Below are positions 404 to 58,734 of a stretch of 64,000 nt of DNA, piece after piece. The stretch covers positions 165,318 to 229,317 of the IMG/VR virus record IMGVR_UViG_3300014208_000001; one strand, 5' to 3'. The notes under the pieces were generated by a model. It saw only the letters and a list, made by a program, of their open reading frames with translations, ran no database searches and was not told the DNA's origin. Numbering within the stretch: position 1 is the first letter of the stretch; each line of letters starts with the position of its first letter. The stretch is from a virus. Its lineage: Duplodnaviria; Heunggongvirae; Uroviricota; Caudoviricetes. The position numbers and the translations under genes are program-made.

Positions 404-1042
404 TTAGTCGAGTCCGTCGGCTATTGCGGCGATTGGGTTGCGGTTCTGGTTTTCGAGGATAGTTGGTCTCGTTGATTGGGCCTTTGCGGGCTTATTACGA
501 TTTTGGTCTATTCTCTTTGTTTGACCAGTACCTTCTGTTAGCGTTTTGGCTGGTGTAGCCTTCGATTCATTGAGTTTTCTCTCAATGGTTCGATTACGTT
601 GGAGTGCTTTTTCAGCTAGTGCATTGGCTCTATTAGCCCGTGCGATTGCTGTGTCGCGCTCCTCTTTTAGAGTTGCCATTTGGTCATGCAGGGCTTTAGA
701 ATCCTTATCGCTTTCTCCAATTGTTATGCCCTCTAACGACTGACGTATGTCGCGGAGCTTGGATAGAGCATCGGATTCCTTAAGGGCCGAACTCTTGATG
801 AGTTTTCTTTCGATAGCGGACACTTGGCTCTCAAAGAAGATTTGGACTTTGCGAGCTAGATCACGCTTATGAGTGTCGACTTCTTCGACACAGATTTTTT
901 TGGCTTCTTTGATCTTTTCTTTTAGTTCAAGATCGGCCTGTTCTCTGATATCTTTCCGATACTTTTCTAAACTCTCAACTATTTGAGATGATAAAGTTTC
1001 GGAAACACCAGCTTGTTTGAACAGTTCACGAATCTTTTCCAT
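404..1042 (-). CDS. prohead scaffold/core protein (gp22-like, coiled-coil, K/E-rich)
   Basis: A 212-aa charged, heptad-rich protein lying immediately upstream (on the minus strand) of the gp23-like gene, as gp22 does in T4. Confidence 0.45.
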   Translation of the reverse strand: MEKIRELFKQAGVSETLSSQIVESLEKYRKDIREQADLELKEKIKEAKKICVEEVDTHKRDLARKVQIFFESQVSAIERKLIKSSALKESDALSKLRDIRQSLEGITIGESDKDSKALHDQMATLKEERDTAIARANRANALAEKALQRNRTIERKLNESKATPAKTLTEGTGQTKRIDQNRNKPAKAQSTRPTILENQNRNPIAAIADGLD

Positions 1043-1164
1043 TATACTATCCTTAAGGTAATCGAAGGTTCTGTAATAACTTTGCTGGAGAGCTTATAAT
1101 TTTATTTAATTCTAAATATATATTTGAGCGAATTAAATAATTGTTATTTAATTAAACAATAATG

Positions 1165-1380
1165 CTATTTGCGAATAATAAGATACAATATAAAACATAG
1201 ATATATAACATTAATAACAGGGCAAAAAGCAATAAACAAACAGTACACCAAAACAGTAATGTCGCTAGTAACTATACCATCATTAATCATAGTATCAGCA
1301 TATTGATCAAAAAACATATAGAAATATAAACATGCAATAGCAGCTGGCAATAAGTATGAATAAAATATCATATCGATCAT
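1165..1380 (-). CDS. small 2-TM membrane protein
   Basis: A 71-aa ORF with two hydrophobic segments; no recognisable motif. Confidence 0.3.
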   Translation of the reverse strand: MIDMIFYSYLLPAAIACLYFYMFFDQYADTMINDGIVTSDITVLVYCLFIAFCPVINVIYLCFILYLIIRK

Positions 1381-2154
1381 TTGATTAAACTCTCAAAATT
1401 TCGTATTCCAATCGACATGACAAAAACACAATGGCGCATTTCATTAAATAAAATGATTATTGATGATTTGTGCGAATATTTTCCTGGATTATCTTCTAAT
1501 CCAGAATATTATAATGATTATACATCACGCGAATCAACAGTGACTTTTAAATTACTATGTAAAAACGCTATAGCATTAATGATAGAAATTGAACATATAA
1601 CAGTATCACCACAAGATACTATAAAAGTAACTATCTATGTTGATACCGTATTGGCGTCAAAATATCACAAAAATATTTTGTGCTTTAAATTATTTCACAA
1701 AAGAGCTTTTACTCAAACGCAATATATCAGTAAACAACGTTATGCACATTTCAAATTGAAAACGTATTCATTTACAGAAGCAAGAGAATTCGATGCGACA
1801 ATGTATGATAATTTCTTCGCTATGGCACGTTCTAGAGTTAAATATATGTGTCTTAATATAATGAGTAGTATTAATAATTTGATATTATTACACCACTTGC
1901 TTGAAGAAACCAAGATATTTAGACACGACAATATTGATATATATAACTTATATAAAGATTACTTATCAGAGTATTCATGTGTATTTAAAATACCATATAA
2001 AAATAATACTTATACATTAGATACTTATAGTAATAAAATTAATTTCATAGAAAATATTCAAAAAGGAGAAAATATAGAATTAGTGCGTGATATAATACTA
2101 TACCATCCACCAAAATTATTCAACTTGCTTGATATGTTATTGGAACCAAAATGA
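1381..2154 (+). CDS. hypothetical protein (plus-strand island)
   Basis: A 257-aa ORF, ATGA-coupled to the next plus-strand ORF. Confidence 0.4.
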   Translation: MIKLSKFRIPIDMTKTQWRISLNKMIIDDLCEYFPGLSSNPEYYNDYTSRESTVTFKLLCKNAIALMIEIEHITVSPQDTIKVTIYVDTVLASKYHKNILCFKLFHKRAFTQTQYISKQRYAHFKLKTYSFTEAREFDATMYDNFFAMARSRVKYMCLNIMSSINNLILLHHLLEETKIFRHDNIDIYNLYKDYLSEYSCVFKIPYKNNTYTLDTYSNKINFIENIQKGENIELVRDIILYHPPKLFNLLDMLLEPK

Positions 2155-52683: not shown

Positions 52684-52947
52684 ATGTTAATGATTGAAGC
52701 TAATTACAATTCTAAAAATATATTACTTCTCGAAATAGGTCGATCAGATACCAAATTGTACGCACTTGATACATCTAAAATACATGACACAGATAGAGAA
52801 TTAGTCAAAACATCAAAAGAAATATTAAAATCATTAGATAGCCACCAACGGTATCAATGGTTAAAAGATAATTGCAAATCATTAAAAGATTGCTATCGCA
52901 CATATTCTTTAAACAAAATGAAAATCATAAACACACATGAATTATGA
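52684..52947 (+). CDS. small hypothetical protein (plus strand, 87 aa)
   Basis: Internal Met of ORF 52483..52947, with a GAGG RBS. It lies in the gap between two minus-strand genes. Confidence 0.3.
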   Translation: MLMIEANYNSKNILLLEIGRSDTKLYALDTSKIHDTDRELVKTSKEILKSLDSHQRYQWLKDNCKSLKDCYRTYSLNKMKIINTHEL

Positions 52948-53961
52948 TCTTATTTTCTTTAATATTTTAGCATATTTAGCAAGTGATAAATACTCTTTTG
53001 ATGTTAATTTTTTAATTCCGTCATTAAATTCTTTTCGTATATCATTTAATGACATTTTGGCGTCAGTATATAATTCATTCCAATCTTTTAATAATTTACC
53101 ATCTATTTCAATTTCTGGCGGTAAACTATAATACAACTCATAATTTGATAGCACTGACTTATTTACCAATATACTCATAATACCTGCATAATCAAGATCA
53201 GCGGCCAATATAATACCATCTTTTGGTCCAATAGCTTTGATTTTCTTATATTGCCCATCAGTTACTGTAGCCCCTCCTATCGCCACTGTTTGATCGCCTA
53301 AAGTATGTGCGTCGAATATCGCTTCTACTATTATTAAATAACTAGCTGGTTCAACATTATCAAACCCATAAATATACTCACCTTTATTTGTGCCAGTAGG
53401 AAATGTGAAAATTTTCCCTAAGCATGATCTTGATTGCCAATATACTAATTCGTCATATTCATAATATGGCCATATTACATCAAATCCAGAATAATGCAAT
53501 GAATTTTCTTTAATTTTATCTGCTGTCAAACCTCTCGATTTCAACCATTTATTGACTCGTTTTGTAAAAACATCATCATTATCACTTATTAGTTTACTAT
53601 TATTAGGTAATTCTATTGAATATTTCTGTTCAACTTTCTTATCTTTTATATAATCGTATATATATCCTGCGCCTAATATTTCTTTTAATGCTTGCGAATA
53701 CGTTACTTTTCTATATAATTGGACAAATTTTATAAATGAACAATTACGTTTACCAGTTATCGAACTTGGCGCGCCCGCCCATCTTTCATTTCCTCGCCAA
53801 TCATTACATAATGCTAATTCAGTGTTTATATTAAATTTATAATGCCTATCATCATCAAATGGCGAACATATTAATAATTCTTCACCATTTTTGCGTTCTT
53901 TATATGTAAAATTCTTAGATACCCAATTTTTAATCGCTCGCGGTGGTATTTTGACTTTCAT
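52942..53961 (-). CDS. DNA primase, gp61-like (zinc ribbon + TOPRIM)
   Basis: C-terminal LSLAKYAKILKK matches T4 gp61 MRLSKYAKI. Also IIVEAIFDAHTL versus YVLEGPIDSLFI, an N-terminal CSPF...H...C zinc motif and DLDYAG. Confidence 0.75.
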   Translation of the reverse strand: MKVKIPPRAIKNWVSKNFTYKERKNGEELLICSPFDDDRHYKFNINTELALCNDWRGNERWAGAPSSITGKRNCSFIKFVQLYRKVTYSQALKEILGAGYIYDYIKDKKVEQKYSIELPNNSKLISDNDDVFTKRVNKWLKSRGLTADKIKENSLHYSGFDVIWPYYEYDELVYWQSRSCLGKIFTFPTGTNKGEYIYGFDNVEPASYLIIVEAIFDAHTLGDQTVAIGGATVTDGQYKKIKAIGPKDGIILAADLDYAGIMSILVNKSVLSNYELYYSLPPEIEIDGKLLKDWNELYTDAKMSLNDIRKEFNDGIKKLTSKEYLSLAKYAKILKKIRS

Positions 53962-54202
53962 GAAATATCGCTTTCACTCTTTCAATACAAAGCGGATCGA
54001 TTATACTTATTTCATCTCTAATATCATATCCATTTTTAATTATAATTAATTGATTATTTAAGAATATTGTATATTTAACATTTGATGATACTTTTGTGAT
54101 GCAATCAACTTTTTGCCATTGATCAGATATTTTAAAAAATGATGACTTGTACTCTTTGCTACCTGATAATGAATCATATATAGCACAAATGATTTCATTC
54201 AT
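53930..54202 (-). CDS. hypothetical protein
   Basis: A 90-aa ORF. Confidence 0.3.
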   Translation of the reverse strand: MNEIICAIYDSLSGSKEYKSSFFKISDQWQKVDCITKVSSNVKYTIFLNNQLIIIKNGYDIRDEISIIDPLCIERVKAIFHESQNTTASD

Positions 54203-54803
54203 GTGCCTGGCCCAATTGCATTATTGACCCGACAAAACTAACTACATTTCCTTTATTGTTTTTTATTACATGACAAGCACCTCTGACTTTTATTTTGCCA
54301 CCATTTTTACGATTTATAAAATATTCACCAACAAAATCACGCTCTTGATTTACAGCATCACGCCACTCTCTCCATATTCTGTCACGGTCATCTTCATGGA
54401 TACTAATTATCCATCCGCTACCATATGCCTCTGATGGCAATAAACCTGTCAAAACACACCATTGATTGTTAACATTTATACAATCACCATTATGATCGGT
54501 TTCATAAAATCCTATATTCATATGATATGATATATCATGAATTTGATTTTCTAATTTATGTTGGGTTTTATCAATTTTATCAATAACATCTCTTAATGTT
54601 AAACCATTATCAGAGTGAAATTCCTCACTGATTGATATTAATACTGGAATATATTTGTTAATTTTTCTGGCTGCTTTTAATACTGGTATTAAAAAATATT
54701 TATAAAAGAATACTATTATGACTAATATAGTTATAGCATCTGATGCCCATACCAATCCATTTTTATCTAATATATTAAGCCATCGATTGTTGAAACTTTC
54801 CAT
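54195..54803 (-). CDS. membrane-anchored PAS-domain protein
   Basis: N-terminal TM ITILVIIVFFYKYFLIPVL. PAS-like GSGWIISIHEDDRDRIWREW...GEYFINRKNGGKIKVRGACHVIKNNKGNVVSFVGSIMQL. Confidence 0.5.
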   Translation of the reverse strand: MESFNNRWLNILDKNGLVWASDAITILVIIVFFYKYFLIPVLKAARKINKYIPVLISISEEFHSDNGLTLRDVIDKIDKTQHKLENQIHDISYHMNIGFYETDHNGDCINVNNQWCVLTGLLPSEAYGSGWIISIHEDDRDRIWREWRDAVNQERDFVGEYFINRKNGGKIKVRGACHVIKNNKGNVVSFVGSIMQLGQAHE

Positions 54804-54811
54804 ATGTAACT

Positions 54812-55657
54812 TTACGAGATCGTGAACATGAACTTGCGACTTACTCGTGTTGTTCCATCTGGTATTACAAGTTTAATCGAATATTCATACGTTCCTTTTA
54901 AAAATAATGATGTATCTAGATTATATCTTAATACCCATGGATTAGTTCTATAATATCCTTGTGCTAATCCTATTGTCATTTCAGCATTATCGATTAACAA
55001 TTCATTATGCTGTGTTTTAATAGTTATAGATGGCTGCAAATATGGTATCATTGGTGCAACTAAGTTATAATTATACTCATATAACGGCAATGGCATTAAA
55101 CTAATTTCTAGTGGTTTCACTTCCGGATAATGAAAATGCAAATTCAATGGATTAAATGAAAAGTTTACAGTTTGTAACCCATCATCACATAACCATTCAT
55201 CTGGAAAAACTATAAATCTCTTACAGCACTTTAATAATTCACTCTCATGTAATGTTAAATCGCACCCACCAGTGACTTCTGATGTACCATCATTAGTACA
55301 TGGATCATTTGGATAATAATACCATACATCAATAAATGTGTCTGGGACAGATACTGTATTTGGGACATCATAATAATAATGAAATTTGCCCGTTACTGGT
55401 TCAATACTGGTAACAGGCGCTGTCCCACAATCACCAGTTTCGGTTGCTATATATTCGCGTTCTACTGGTGCTGGGTATAGCGGATTATCAACAGATATAA
55501 CTGGTATCGATGCTATTAAATTGCCTGGTGTATATTTAGTTTTATAAATTTCGACTTTATATATCGCATATGGATCTGTTGGAACGCCATTATTATAAAA
55601 TGTAACATTAAGGTCTACTTCATGACCTCTTCTACCAGATATTCTTGGATATGCCAT
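54812..55657 (-). CDS. hypothetical (possibly structural) Cys/Pro/Tyr-rich protein
   Basis: A 281-aa ORF. Confidence 0.35.
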   Translation of the reverse strand: MAYPRISGRRGHEVDLNVTFYNNGVPTDPYAIYKVEIYKTKYTPGNLIASIPVISVDNPLYPAPVEREYIATETGDCGTAPVTSIEPVTGKFHYYYDVPNTVSVPDTFIDVWYYYPNDPCTNDGTSEVTGGCDLTLHESELLKCCKRFIVFPDEWLCDDGLQTVNFSFNPLNLHFHYPEVKPLEISLMPLPLYEYNYNLVAPMIPYLQPSITIKTQHNELLIDNAEMTIGLAQGYYRTNPWVLRYNLDTSLFLKGTYEYSIKLVIPDGTTRVSRKFMFTIS

Positions 55658-55878: not shown

Positions 55879-56832
55879 TCATACTCGAGCGGGTTTCTTC
55901 TTACGAAAAAAGGATTCAGTCACTGGTAATGCTATACTAGAAACTTCATCACATGACGGGCAGTTAACCTCTACTGTAGCATCAAGCCCAGGTGTGTTGT
56001 CTTTAAGCCAGTCACGAATGGTCTGACGATCAGCAGACGATAACCTGTTACACACTTCACGTATTTTCATAAGATCAGAATTACCAAGAACACTTACAAC
56101 ATTATTATCAACATTAGCTAATATCAATGCTGTATTATCTTCTGAAGTCTTTTTATTAAATGTACCAGGCTTAGAGGCTCTACCAATACCAGTAGCTTTA
56201 CTCAATGATTTCTTTCTTGCTAATAATGTGATCATATCTGACCGTCTAGTAAATCTTAACCCGACAGTCACTTCACGACCAACACGTTCACTAATATCAG
56301 GTAAAACAATTTCAACTGGTTCAACCATACCCTGTTTGGCATATCTAACAAATTGTGACAAGTTAGATAGATCATAAGAATATGTTGATGATTCATTGCA
56401 ATGTGGACATTGCATTATAAATTCATAATCTTTACCATACGATATACCTCTTATATAATAAATTAGATAAGTGGTGTCTCCAACAATGAGATCTGATGGA
56501 TCAAACCCTTGTGGAAATTCACAACATGCTTTAATCATGTTGTCAATATTTTCACCAGTGGCGGCAGTTCTTTGGTTTAAAAGTGCTTGTTCAGCCATAG
56601 TTCCAATTGGTCTAACTTTAATTAGACCAGATGGCCATCCATAAAATTGACCATGGCTAGGTAATTCAACAGTCTCCAGAGGCAATAATGCATCTTCTGG
56701 CAGTTGAATAATATGTTCTAATAATTCAGCCGCTGTCGATCCAGGATCTAATTTGAGTGCTGGATCTATTTCCTTTGCAGGTGATTTTTCTGTAACTGGT
56801 GTTTCAGAAAATTTATGAATCTCTTTTGCCAT
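55879..56832 (-). CDS. hypothetical protein with two CxxC pairs (CPHC...CPSC), tail-module neighbour
   Basis: A 317-aa ORF downstream of the tube paralogs. Confidence 0.4.
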   Translation of the reverse strand: MAKEIHKFSETPVTEKSPAKEIDPALKLDPGSTAAELLEHIIQLPEDALLPLETVELPSHGQFYGWPSGLIKVRPIGTMAEQALLNQRTAATGENIDNMIKACCEFPQGFDPSDLIVGDTTYLIYYIRGISYGKDYEFIMQCPHCNESSTYSYDLSNLSQFVRYAKQGMVEPVEIVLPDISERVGREVTVGLRFTRRSDMITLLARKKSLSKATGIGRASKPGTFNKKTSEDNTALILANVDNNVVSVLGNSDLMKIREVCNRLSSADRQTIRDWLKDNTPGLDATVEVNCPSCDEVSSIALPVTESFFRKKKPARV

Positions 56833-56871: not shown

Positions 56872-57447
56872 TTATGGGGTTGATTGACTACGTACACTAC
56901 CTTCAACTTCTTCTTCGGCCCAGTCATATGATAGGCTAACTTCTACAATTTTAATTTCAGATGATGTATATGATAATTCGCCGTGCCGTATCGATGATGG
57001 CCAACTATTTTTTAATCTAAATATTTGAACAGGTCCACTATCCTCACCACTATCTAAATATGATCGTAATATTGATTCCCTTTTATAACTATTAGGTGGT
57101 TTCAACCCAGCCGCTGATGTCCATATTTGTTTACGCCATTCAGTTAATATTTCGAATAAACCAGTACTATCATACCACGTTAATTTAACATCTTCCCATG
57201 CAACTGATTTAGCAAATTTATATTCTAAATTAGCTCCCATAACTTTTTCACTATTAACTATAAATGTTGGTAATGTCGCATCTTTAAGATATATCAATGC
57301 TCTATTGTTAGACCCCAATGGATCATATAAGTCAAATAATGATTCTATTTCCCATGAGTATGATGTATAAAATTCAGCTGTACTAACTGGATGGACATTC
57401 CCCAATCGTGATTCATCACCCAATTTGTCAACTCTAAATCCAGGCAT
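56872..57447 (-). CDS. tail tube protein family (gp19-like), paralog 3
   Basis: MPGF N-terminus. The C-terminus WPSSIRHGELSYTSSEIKIVEVSLSYDWAE resembles T4 gp19 LWPTNVGELQLDWDSNNEIQTFEVTLALDYWE. Confidence 0.65.
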   Translation of the reverse strand: MPGFRVDKLGDESRLGNVHPVSTAEFYTSYSWEIESLFDLYDPLGSNNRALIYLKDATLPTFIVNSEKVMGANLEYKFAKSVAWEDVKLTWYDSTGLFEILTEWRKQIWTSAAGLKPPNSYKRESILRSYLDSGEDSGPVQIFRLKNSWPSSIRHGELSYTSSEIKIVEVSLSYDWAEEEVEGSVRSQSTP

Positions 57448-57455
57448 TTTATCCC

Positions 57456-58067
57456 TTATGGATTAACATTTGGGTTTATCTCTAAAGCTTTATTATATGA
57501 TATTGTCAATGTTATACATTGGATCGATGATGATGAATAATCCAATTCATCTGGTGTAATATTCATAGGCCACGCATCAAATAATTGGTACTTCCATGCC
57601 GATTTGCCTAATCCATCTTCTAACGATATTATTAAATCTCGTAAATACCCATCAGGTTTTACTGGTTTATTTATTATCGACTTTTTAAAATCGGCTACAC
57701 CTTTGGCACTATTAACCCACTTGTATATTGTTTCAGCGGTGGTATTTACTGGAACATCTCCAGGCTTATCAACTATTTCATAAAATGTAACTGTTATTGG
57801 TTGCCATCTGTATTTTCCTGGCCTATATATTTCTTCTAAACCATTATTAATTACCATTCTATCAAATTCAATTATCGGTCTTTGTGCTCTATGTGCATAC
57901 ATTAATATTTTATCAAAATCTGATAATACTTCTATTTTATATCTATGTGACCGTATTGTTTCAACAGTATGCAATGGTAATGTTGATGTTGATAAAGTAT
58001 TATTAGTTGGTATATCGCTAAAACCACATGTACTGTCTGCTTGAGATGGTATATTGAAACCTGGCAT
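57456..58067 (-). CDS. tail tube protein family (gp19-like), paralog 2
   Basis: MPGFNIPSQ...AWPMNITPDELDYSSSSIQCITLTISYNKA. Confidence 0.65.
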   Translation of the reverse strand: MPGFNIPSQADSTCGFSDIPTNNTLSTSTLPLHTVETIRSHRYKIEVLSDFDKILMYAHRAQRPIIEFDRMVINNGLEEIYRPGKYRWQPITVTFYEIVDKPGDVPVNTTAETIYKWVNSAKGVADFKKSIINKPVKPDGYLRDLIISLEDGLGKSAWKYQLFDAWPMNITPDELDYSSSSIQCITLTISYNKALEINPNVNP

Positions 58068-58161: not shown

Positions 58162-58734
58162 TTAACATGTTGGAACATTAGCTGCCGGAACTGGTGCGGC
58201 TTGACATGTTCTAATCGCTCTATCATATCTCATCGTCACTTCAATCGTTAGTATTTCAGATGAAGTGTAATTGAGTTCTTGCCAATTTGATTGAGCAGGC
58301 CATGTACCATACATCATCCATCGTTCTGATGGCTGCCCGGCACCATTTAATAATGCCAAAGAAGCAGTACGCTTATAATTGACAGGCGCTGCAACAACTA
58401 TCGTCGACATATTGACAATAGTTTCAATCCACTGATAAATACTACGCGAAACGTCTGGATTCTGTTCAGCATCATACCAAACTAGATTAACTGGTTCCCA
58501 ATCTTGTTTACCAGCGAATCTCGCCACTTCTTGGTTATGATGCATCTCAGGCTCTTCGAATTTAATATTCGGCCTGGATGCTGATTGTAGTATTAATAAT
58601 TCAGCTTCGGTAAAGCTACCAGCGCCTTTACCAATATATTCAAAAATCCACCGATGTTTACGGCGAGTTTCTATAGTATTTGATGGTCCGCTAGTAAAAC
58701 CACCACCCAATCCACCGATATTGAATCCTGGCAC
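58162..58734 (-). CDS. tail tube protein, gp19-like, paralog 1 (GTG start)
   Basis: NQEVARFAGKQDWEPVNLVWYDAE and YGTWPAQSNWQELNYTSSEILTIEVTMRYDRA align with T4 gp19. The start codon is GTG with a GGAGG RBS. Confidence 0.7.
   Translation of the reverse strand: MPGFNIGGLGGGFTSGPSNTIETRRKHRWIFEYIGKGAGSFTEAELLILQSASRPNIKFEEPEMHHNQEVARFAGKQDWEPVNLVWYDAEQNPDVSRSIYQWIETIVNMSTIVVAAPVNYKRTASLALLNGAGQPSERWMMYGTWPAQSNWQELNYTSSEILTIEVTMRYDRAIRTCQAAPVPAANVPTC

Follow-up and report, generated by a model that had tools for sequence, protein, structure and literature searches.

A Phage-Restricted Membrane Module Fused to a PAS Domain: a Tentative Candidate for a Sensor-Bearing Regulator of Phage Lysis

The gene and its product

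The gene considered here lies on the minus strand of a tailed phage (Caudoviricetes), at 54195..54803 of the 64,000-nucleotide stretch that was analyzed, hereafter the window (positions 165,318 to 229,317 of IMG/VR record IMGVR_UViG_3300014208_000001). Its open reading frame (ORF) has an ATG start, a TGA stop, and 202 codons and contains the peptides quoted by a first-pass annotation of the sequence, which had described the product as a membrane-anchored PAS-domain protein with no output domain. Based on the ORF list and on end-to-end alignment with a family of similar proteins, we are highly confident that the product is a 202-amino-acid (aa) single-pass inner-membrane protein that belongs to this family and is composed of two modules, an N-terminal membrane module (the N-module) and a PAS_3 domain. 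The N-module comprises residues 1 to 94 (54522..54803, minus strand), as supported by a hidden Markov model (HMM) of PAS-less relatives and by the helices of an AlphaFold2 model; it consists of a short acidic or neutral N-terminal tail predicted to lie outside, a transmembrane (TM) helix, a basic stretch, and a linker built as a helix, an “NG..LRD.ID.I” turn, and a second helix. The linker carries ISEEFHSDNGLTLRDVIDKID (residues 58 to 78; 54570..54632, minus strand), which family alignments identify as a divergent version of the motif EF.PNGG.SLRD.IDRIE. The PAS_3 domain follows at residues 95 to 196 (54216..54521, minus strand), and the protein stops at residue 202, 6 residues past the domain. 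Beyond PAS, a Pfam scan of the 202-aa protein finds no kinase, GGDEF, EAL, or other domain; in particular, neither the DHp (HisKA) domain nor the catalytic ATPase domain of a sensor histidine kinase follows the PAS domain.

The TM helix occupies approximately residues 17 to 42 (54678..54755, minus strand), as judged from hydropathy and charge bias. In a 19-residue Kyte-Doolittle window, hydropathy reaches its maximum of 2.43 at residues 24 to 42, and no second comparable segment occurs in the 202-aa protein, which bears out the earlier claim of one N-terminal TM helix. Directly after the helix comes KAARKINK, and the charges before the helix cancel. This bias is shared by the family: among 100 relatives that carry a PAS domain, the mean number of lysine and arginine residues is 0.49 on the N-terminal flank and 3.37 on the C-terminal flank, with the C-terminal flank higher in 96 of the 100, and the C-terminal flank is the richer one in 75 of 75 PAS-less relatives. 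By the positive-inside rule, we predict that the N terminus lies outside and that the linker and the PAS domain are cytoplasmic; any cue sensed by the PAS domain would therefore be intracellular.

The PAS domain and the question of a cofactor

The PAS fold is well supported. Pfam PAS_3 (PF08447) matches residues 109 to 193 with an E value of 5e-14 and 52.8 bits, against a cutoff of 25.6, and the profiles PAS (35.2 bits; cutoff, 22.6) and PAS_9 (29.1 bits; cutoff, 27) also exceed their cutoffs, with the PAS matches overall spanning residues ~95 to 195. AlphaFold run from the single sequence gave a poor model, with a predicted local distance difference test (pLDDT) score of 51, and a usable model needed a 28-sequence family alignment; with that alignment, AlphaFold2 reached a mean pLDDT of 89.9 and placed helices at residues 14 to 49, 52 to 63, and 70 to 94, followed by a PAS domain at residues 98 to 196 whose strands and helices follow the PAS order. 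Foldseek against the PDB returned solved PAS/LOV domains at E values of ~1e-8 and target-normalized TM-scores of 0.78 to 0.84. Both the profile search and the structure prediction that the first-pass annotation had proposed as checks thus agree with its assignment of a PAS fold.

Its further suggestion that the domain might read host redox or oxygen state fared less well, and sensing through heme or flavin is likewise unsupported. The residues conserved in the PAS domain are the generic PAS_3 set (E101, D103, G106, N112, G128, G130, W131, V143, W147, R155, F157, V173, and G192). A flavin-binding LOV identity was rejected on the sequence signature: NCRFLQ of the GxNCRFLQ motif is replaced by SGWIIS, and in an alignment to CagFbFP the position reads GSG-WIISIH. 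A heme-PAS of the FixL/DosP type was rejected in the same way, as the F-alpha helix (residues 137 to 153, DDRDRIWREWRDAVNQE) contains no histidine, and among the 100 family members no histidine reaches 60% conservation. The structural neighbors in the PDB mix flavin-binding, heme-binding, and cofactor-free PAS domains without clear order. Nothing in the sequence or among the structural neighbors points to any particular ligand. The protein may still signal through protein-protein contacts, as the first-pass annotation also suggested. By sequence, the PAS part is closest to multi-PAS signaling proteins of cells, and identity to cellular PAS domains is only about 25 to 39%, so that we see no sign of recent capture from a host.

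A large phage-restricted family with and without PAS

How widely is this architecture distributed? A word-indexed homologue search found the query protein only, and an exhaustive phmmer search was used instead. It returned 13,978 proteins at an E value of ≤1e-3, mostly multi-PAS signaling proteins that match the PAS part alone, together with a set of a different kind: 27 of the best 150 matches are 170 to 225 aa long and align end to end with the window protein. The full architecture, a TM module followed by PAS, is common to about 100 distinct phage proteins of ~200 aa, which we refer to as the fused members. Their alignment reads, in order, a hydrophobic helix, a basic stretch, EF.PNGG.SLRD.IDRIE, a helix, and a PAS domain with GNGW...IHPDDR..V..EW...R.F. 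Identity across 100 distinct members is 85 to 100% at P, N, G, G, S, L, R, and D of the motif, which equals or exceeds that at the best positions of the PAS domain itself. The window protein is atypical here, reading S-D-N-G-L-T-L-R-D-V-I-D-K-I-D where the family has P-N-G-G-x-S-L-R-D-x-I-D-R-I-E; judged from the alignment, the loss of one residue together with substitutions is the best explanation.

The N-module also exists without PAS. A profile of it matched 1,490 proteins at an E value of ≤1e-3, which fall into two size classes, one carrying PAS and one lacking it; the best 120 matches include 75 proteins of no more than 140 aa and 42 proteins of 180 to 235 aa that carry PAS. When an HMM was built from 72 of the PAS-less (stand-alone) proteins only, residues 23 to 90 of the window protein scored 31.6 bits, compared with a mean of 0 and a maximum of 8.6 bits over 2000 controls in which the TM helix was kept and the linker was shuffled. 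Motif scans led to the same two classes. A degenerate DNA motif scan of IMG/VR gave 10 loci, 4 of which encode fused ~200-aa proteins, while the remaining loci encode a TM helix and the motif without PAS in 87 to 122 aa (250 aa in one case). A relaxed scan gave at least 120 loci, all 120 of which contain an ORF matching the N-module HMM, and a scan from the PAS side added 12 loci with PAS proteins of fused size, 9 of which also match that HMM. The strict motif, searched in 185,579 species genomes, produced one match, in Actinosynnema, which is identical to an IMG/VR provirus, and every neighborhood of a family member that we inspected is that of a phage. Taken as sequence evidence, these results indicate that residues 1 to 94 are homologous to a large phage-restricted family of PAS-less proteins of 63 to 136 aa. 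These PNGG.SLRD.IDRIE proteins, mostly unannotated, are homologous to the window protein over its residues 23 to 90 and share its predicted topology and its helix-motif-helix linker; they differ in ending in a short coiled-coil tail, often with H.xWHL, and in having no PAS domain.

Variants of the N-module also occur. One (locus L014, 9816..10568) carries a C-terminal extension of ~170 residues that is not PAS, and in a subgroup (the family genes of L131, L160, and L119) an additional conserved stretch, “F.DEWYG...PG...RL,” is inserted after the TM helix and before the motif. The ORF caller takes the longest start, so that the lengths of some variants may be overestimated.

Stand-alone relatives and the lysis cassette

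Family genes from 159 loci were clustered at 70% identity, which gave 47 stand-alone and 32 fused lineages. Among the 87 immediate neighbors of the 47 stand-alone clusters, Pfam recognizes CHAP (5), NLPC_P60 (4), Amidase_2 (3), Glyco_hydro_25 (2), VanY (1), and Phage_holin_9 (1), with LysM and CW_7 also present, and the list of PHROG matches for these neighbors is headed by endolysin families. An endolysin gene stands exactly at position -1 on the same strand in seven stand-alone lineages, and about a quarter of the stand-alone proteins directly adjoin an endolysin gene, as the window gene does not. Local detection of peptidoglycan hydrolases from seed sequences was insensitive and found the NlpC/P60 set only. 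Two loci (L012, 1672..2160, and L013, 6889..7371) show the order NlpC/P60 endolysin, stand-alone N-module gene, and DUF1003 membrane protein (E value, ~1e-20), which may represent a three-gene lysis unit.

Homologues also occur in cultured phages. Gordonia phage Finkle gp22 and Microbacterium phage Theresita gp25, both annotated “membrane protein,” lie in lysin A cassettes, and Theresita gp25 adjoins an annotated holin. Finkle gp22 is a member of DUF2746 in the precomputed Pfam assignments and scores 27.6 bits with the family HMM. The stand-alone form matches phrog_9869, phrog_404, phrog_3534, and phrog_4153, none of which has a tested function. From the gene neighborhoods and the literature discussed below, we infer that the PAS-less N-module is a lysis-cassette protein in or close to the DUF2746/LysF1b class.

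These relatives change what can be said about the lack of an output domain. That part of the first-pass annotation stands insofar as the protein has no enzymatic, DNA-binding, or other known output domain; it does not stand insofar as residues 1 to 94 form a conserved phage module. Because this module also exists on its own beside endolysin genes, we consider it likely that the N-module is the effector part of the protein rather than a passive anchor.

Relation to LysF1b and DUF2746

LysF1b of mycobacteriophages Girr and NormanBulbieJr has been assigned to DUF2746 and has one TM helix with an N-out/C-in topology (PMC13056207). Deletion of lysF1b results in small plaques, loss of sharp lysis, and a tenfold-lower burst, and LysF1b supports cyanide-triggered lysis (PMC13056207; see also PMC9339283). 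The D29 homologue, LysA2b, likewise has one TM helix with an N-out/C-in topology and is required for efficient, well-timed lysis that energy poisons can trigger (PMC13056207; bioRxiv 10.64898/2026.08.27.747656). Its gene follows the tape measure gene, outside the lysis cassette, and replacing LysA2b by LysF1b alters the triggering time (bioRxiv 10.64898/2026.08.27.747656).

The window protein resembles the DUF2746 proteins of actinobacteriophages (LysF1b, LysA2b, Ms6 gp5, and Waterfoul gp32) in several ways. Both have a single N-terminal TM helix in an N-out/C-in orientation, which for the window protein is a prediction, followed by basic residues and a helical cytoplasmic part. Both carry a motif of the form N-x-x-x-x-[LM]-R-D-x-[ILV]-D-x-[IV] 20 to 30 residues past the TM helix. 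Using LysF1b-like sequences taken from the published supplement, we find that Girr gp35 (LysF1b) has TNHTDNMRDDLDEI at a matching distance from its TM helix; the corresponding versions are NSHDSNLRDDVDRV in Finkle, PNGGSSLRDAIDRI in the family, and SDNGLTLRDVIDKI in the window protein. A BLASTP comparison of Finkle gp22 with Girr gp35 gives an E value of 3e-4, with an alignment that runs from the TM helix through the motif. The PAS-less relatives of the window protein occupy lysis cassettes, and the window gene, like lysA2b of D29, lies in a tail region apart from a cassette. The two also differ. Where LysF1b has a helical tail with 30 to 50% charged residues, the window protein has PAS, and whereas the DUF2746 phages are siphoviruses of Actinobacteria, the window belongs to a jumbo phage with a contractile tail and 34% G+C.

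Genome context of the PAS gene

In the window, the PAS gene lies among same-strand genes for a tail sheath, three gp19-type tube paralogues, a T4-type baseplate hub, a gp5/VgrG-like spike, and large baseplate proteins. An unknown ORF of 281 aa (54812..55657, minus strand) is immediately upstream and ends 8 nucleotides (nt) before the PAS start codon. Farther upstream are the hub gene (55879..56832, minus strand; PF12322, E value of 2.6e-16; phrog_150), which marks the tail module, and the three consecutive tube paralogues (56872..57447, 57456..58067, and 58162..58734, minus strand), which match Phage_T4_gp19 or Phage_TTP_2. Downstream, a 90-aa ORF (53930..54202, minus strand) begins with an ATG inside the PAS gene, giving an 8-nt overlap and making translational coupling likely; this ORF has neither a TM helix nor a family match. 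It is overlapped in turn by a DNA primase gene (52942..53961, minus strand; phrog_47, E value of 2.8e-26) located within the tail/baseplate array, beside which a short 87-aa ORF lies on the opposite strand (52684..52947).

No terminator-like site on the minus strand was found to interrupt this array, and promoter-like sites near the PAS gene are not in excess (39, compared with 33.7 ± 6.6 in shuffled sequences). The PAS gene has 27 to 31% G+C and its neighbors 25 to 37%, in a window of 34%, and there is no compositional break. Two recorded contigs encode an identical protein, a JGI metagenome contig of 355,863 bp (Ga0376277_0000214) and a Logan contig of 38.8 kb. The sheath protein shares only 30 to 36% identity with that of any deposited phage, and a DNA search of the region against 50,697 phage records gave no match.

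Two genes elsewhere in the window concern the membrane. One (26911..27645, minus strand) encodes a protein of 244 aa in which a PspA/Vipp1 (IM30) homologue follows an N-terminal TM helix (phmmer against the PDB, E value of 2.7e-6 over residues 44 to 243), that is, a phage-encoded membrane-stress or membrane-remodeling protein. Adjoining it is a gene for a small protein with two TM helices (28223..28522, minus strand), whose start is probably an internal Met, giving ~76 aa, and which is DUF350-like by eye only; its weak score of 9.3 bits with the stand-alone N-module HMM probably reflects the hydrophobic helix alone.

Proposed mechanism

In total, we propose that the window protein and its fused relatives are built on a membrane lysis-regulator module whose charged cytoplasmic tail was replaced by a PAS domain, and we assign a rough probability of 0.4 to a function in lysis regulation. 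In this model, the PAS domain of the fused proteins would have been swapped in for the charged helical cytoplasmic tail of a LysF1b-like regulator. The N-module would act in the membrane, either on a holin-like partner or through its own oligomerization, and the PAS domain would govern it through dimerization or through binding of a ligand or partner in the cytoplasm. An intracellular condition would thereby be tied to a late event at the membrane, most likely the timing of lysis.

We further speculate that these proteins may be sensor-gated lysis regulators. The PAS domain in the cytoplasm would respond to a cue, be it a metabolite, energy, or redox state or a signal made by the phage, by shifting the oligomeric state of the LysF1b-like module; we consider this more specific version distinctly unlikely. 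If it were true, the phage would advance or delay membrane permeabilization according to the state of the infected cell, and the system would be the first case of a classical sensor domain wired into a lysis clock.

Several observations weigh against a role in lysis. A recognizable lysis gene occurs near the fused gene in only 3 of the 32 fused lineages, and the 106 neighbors within two genes of the fused genes in these lineages include a single endolysin, that of L015. There, an Amidase_2 endolysin with its own N-terminal TM segment is directly upstream of the fused gene. In L007/L010/L027, an Rz-like spanin gene (phrog_1152, E value of 2e-15) is two genes upstream, with an HNH endonuclease gene between, and in L020 an Amidase_2 gene lies five genes downstream. 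The usual neighbors of fused genes are instead genes for replication, nucleotide metabolism, chaperonins, and packaging: ribonucleotide reductase, Thy1, dATP/dGTP diphosphohydrolase, clamp loader, DnaB, DNA polymerase, PhoH, Cpn10 (twice), portal, terminase, and capsid. The PAS gene of the window itself stands between baseplate genes and a primase gene, with no lysis gene seen adjoining it. Moreover, the window protein departs from the family at its best-conserved motif positions (P to S, N to D, and G to N, or a deletion), and its function may have diverged. The connection to a tested protein is also indirect: HMMs built from fused or stand-alone N-modules give Girr gp35 insignificant scores of 0.7 and 2.9 bits, inside the range of shuffled controls, the family HMMs as a whole give it 0.7 to 9.9 bits, inside that range or at its limit, and the N-terminal 96 residues of the window protein have no Pfam DUF2746 match even at an E value of ≤1, a stand-alone relative giving 0.09. 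The link from the window protein to LysF1b is, for these reasons, a three-step chain of sequence similarities that is plausible but not proven. Given that large phages often scatter their lysis genes (PMC13056207), the poor proximity of fused genes to lysis genes weakens a role in lysis without excluding it.

The neighborhoods of the fused genes yielded several observations in their own right. The L015 endolysin (915..1622), with its own hydrophobic N terminus, may be of the signal-anchor-release type, and the arrangement recalls the tethered endolysin and single-TM “releasin” of phage Mu. The PHROG 2252 and 5033 label “endolysin; inhibits RNA polymerase” (L031, 6496..7272, and L033, 9080..9478) was discarded as evidence of lysis genes, since Pfam and deposited annotations identify these proteins as dATP/dGTP diphosphohydrolase (DUF5664); the label can mislead searches for lysis genes. 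Fused genes lie near or adjoin chaperonin genes (Cpn10 and Cpn60) in three lineages (L005, 10672..11145; L026, 6838..8778; and L023, 637..2310), which may reflect either common descent or a link in function. In three others (L030, 6304..7023; L034, 1696..2328; and L038, 6675..7304), a protein of ~210 to 240 aa with 33 to 42% identity is encoded just downstream of the fused gene; it has no match in the PDB or in deposited phage genomes.

Alternative explanations

Could the protein simply be a membrane-tethered PAS sensor or adaptor with no role in lysis, its PAS domain signaling to a phage or host protein while the N-module only anchors it? The PAS fold is real and has no catalytic output, and the genes that usually surround the fused members are replication, nucleotide-metabolism, or chaperonin genes rather than lysis genes, with Cpn10 genes adjoining two of the members. 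On the other side stands the linker motif, which at 85 to 100% identity is the most conserved part of the family, is shared with PAS-less proteins that adjoin endolysin genes, and exceeds what a plain anchor would need; nor is any partner gene conserved beside the fused genes, where recurring pairs of neighbors are lineage specific only. We regard this main competitor as possible but on the whole unlikely. Or might the PAS domain be a dominant-negative decoy that blocks host signaling by pairing, at the membrane, with the PAS domains of host sensor kinases, c-di-GMP enzymes, or Aer-type receptors? PAS domains commonly dimerize, eukaryotes have PAS-only inhibitors (IPAS and AhRR), and the PAS part is matched best by multi-PAS signaling proteins of cells. 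However, the identity of about 25 to 39% to cellular PAS domains gives no sign of recent capture from a host target, the family spans very different phage types, and probably different hosts, yet conserves the same residues, and the conserved N-module would be left unexplained, all of which makes a decoy quite improbable.

A different membrane function, such as superinfection exclusion, anti-defense, or control of membrane stress or energy state during infection, would suit a small single-pass phage membrane protein, particularly in a phage that, with its TM-anchored PspA/Vipp1 homologue and small two-TM protein, appears to manage the host membrane. Yet no match to an anti-phage or exclusion family was found (PADLOC was not searched), nothing specific favors such a function, and it makes no use of the association of stand-alone relatives with endolysins; we judge it improbable. 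Finally, the tightly packed minus-strand array that the PAS gene shares with hub, tube, and baseplate genes, with no terminator-like site between, raises the question of whether the product is a baseplate or tail component of the virion. Against this, members in other phages sit beside Thy1, DNA polymerase, clamp loader, portal, or capsid genes, the hydrophobic TM helix shows a positive-inside charge pattern, and the primase gene within the same array means that the array is not purely structural. A virion component is thus very hard to credit.

Comparison with known systems

Among known holins, gpt of T4 (class IIIa) and gp142 of phiKZ (class IIIb) resemble the window protein in combining one TM helix with a large soluble domain that regulates lysis timing (PMC12894885) and in coming from phages with large genomes, in which lysis genes may scatter; they differ in their N-in/C-out topology and in the position of the soluble domain, which is periplasmic in T4 and N-terminal and cytoplasmic in phiKZ, and neither matches the window protein in sequence or, significantly, in fold. 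Identity as a T4-type holin T was rejected: Pfam gives no holin match, the charge bias predicts the opposite orientation, and the top PDB matches include neither gpt nor RI. In a BFVD fold search, the highest-ranking T-type holin had an E value of 1.5e-2 and a TM-score of 0.26. The membrane-proximal PAS domains of bacterial sensor histidine kinases and short PAS/LOV proteins are alike in PAS_3 sequence and fold, in an N-terminal cap helix after the TM helix, and in probable dimerization; the window protein differs in lacking a DHp/CA kinase, GGDEF, EAL, or helix-turn-helix output and in lacking a LOV, heme, or other recognizable cofactor signature.

Proteins of the fused family are not entirely new to databases. 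BFVD contains “PAS domain” proteins of 182 to 219 aa, assigned to uncultured Caudovirales phages, that match the model over its whole length (E values of 6e-12 to 5e-7), and members are thus already in UniProt under automatic names; more-distant full-length matches come from Cellulophaga phages phi19:1 and phi18:3. When the window protein and a consensus-like family member were compared by tblastn with 50,697 deposited phage genomes, no member of the family was found; against the same genomes, a stand-alone consensus had no match and Finkle gp22 matched itself only. PHROGs has no family for the fused protein, and full-text literature searches on PAS domains in phage, lysis, holin, and jumbo-phage contexts turned up no description of such proteins.

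Outlook

The timing of lysis is understood for a few model holin-antiholin systems, and its physiological inputs are little known apart from T4 lysis inhibition. At the strength of the sequence chain set out above, the proteins described here connect the LysF1b class, itself described only recently, with a PNGG.SLRD.IDRIE family in uncultured phages that is far larger and more conserved. Should the link to lysis fail, the family would remain a conserved, uncharacterized membrane-signaling module of phages. If the link holds, the widespread, phage-restricted fusion of a lysis-cassette-type membrane module to a PAS domain would offer a testable candidate for a physiological input to lysis.

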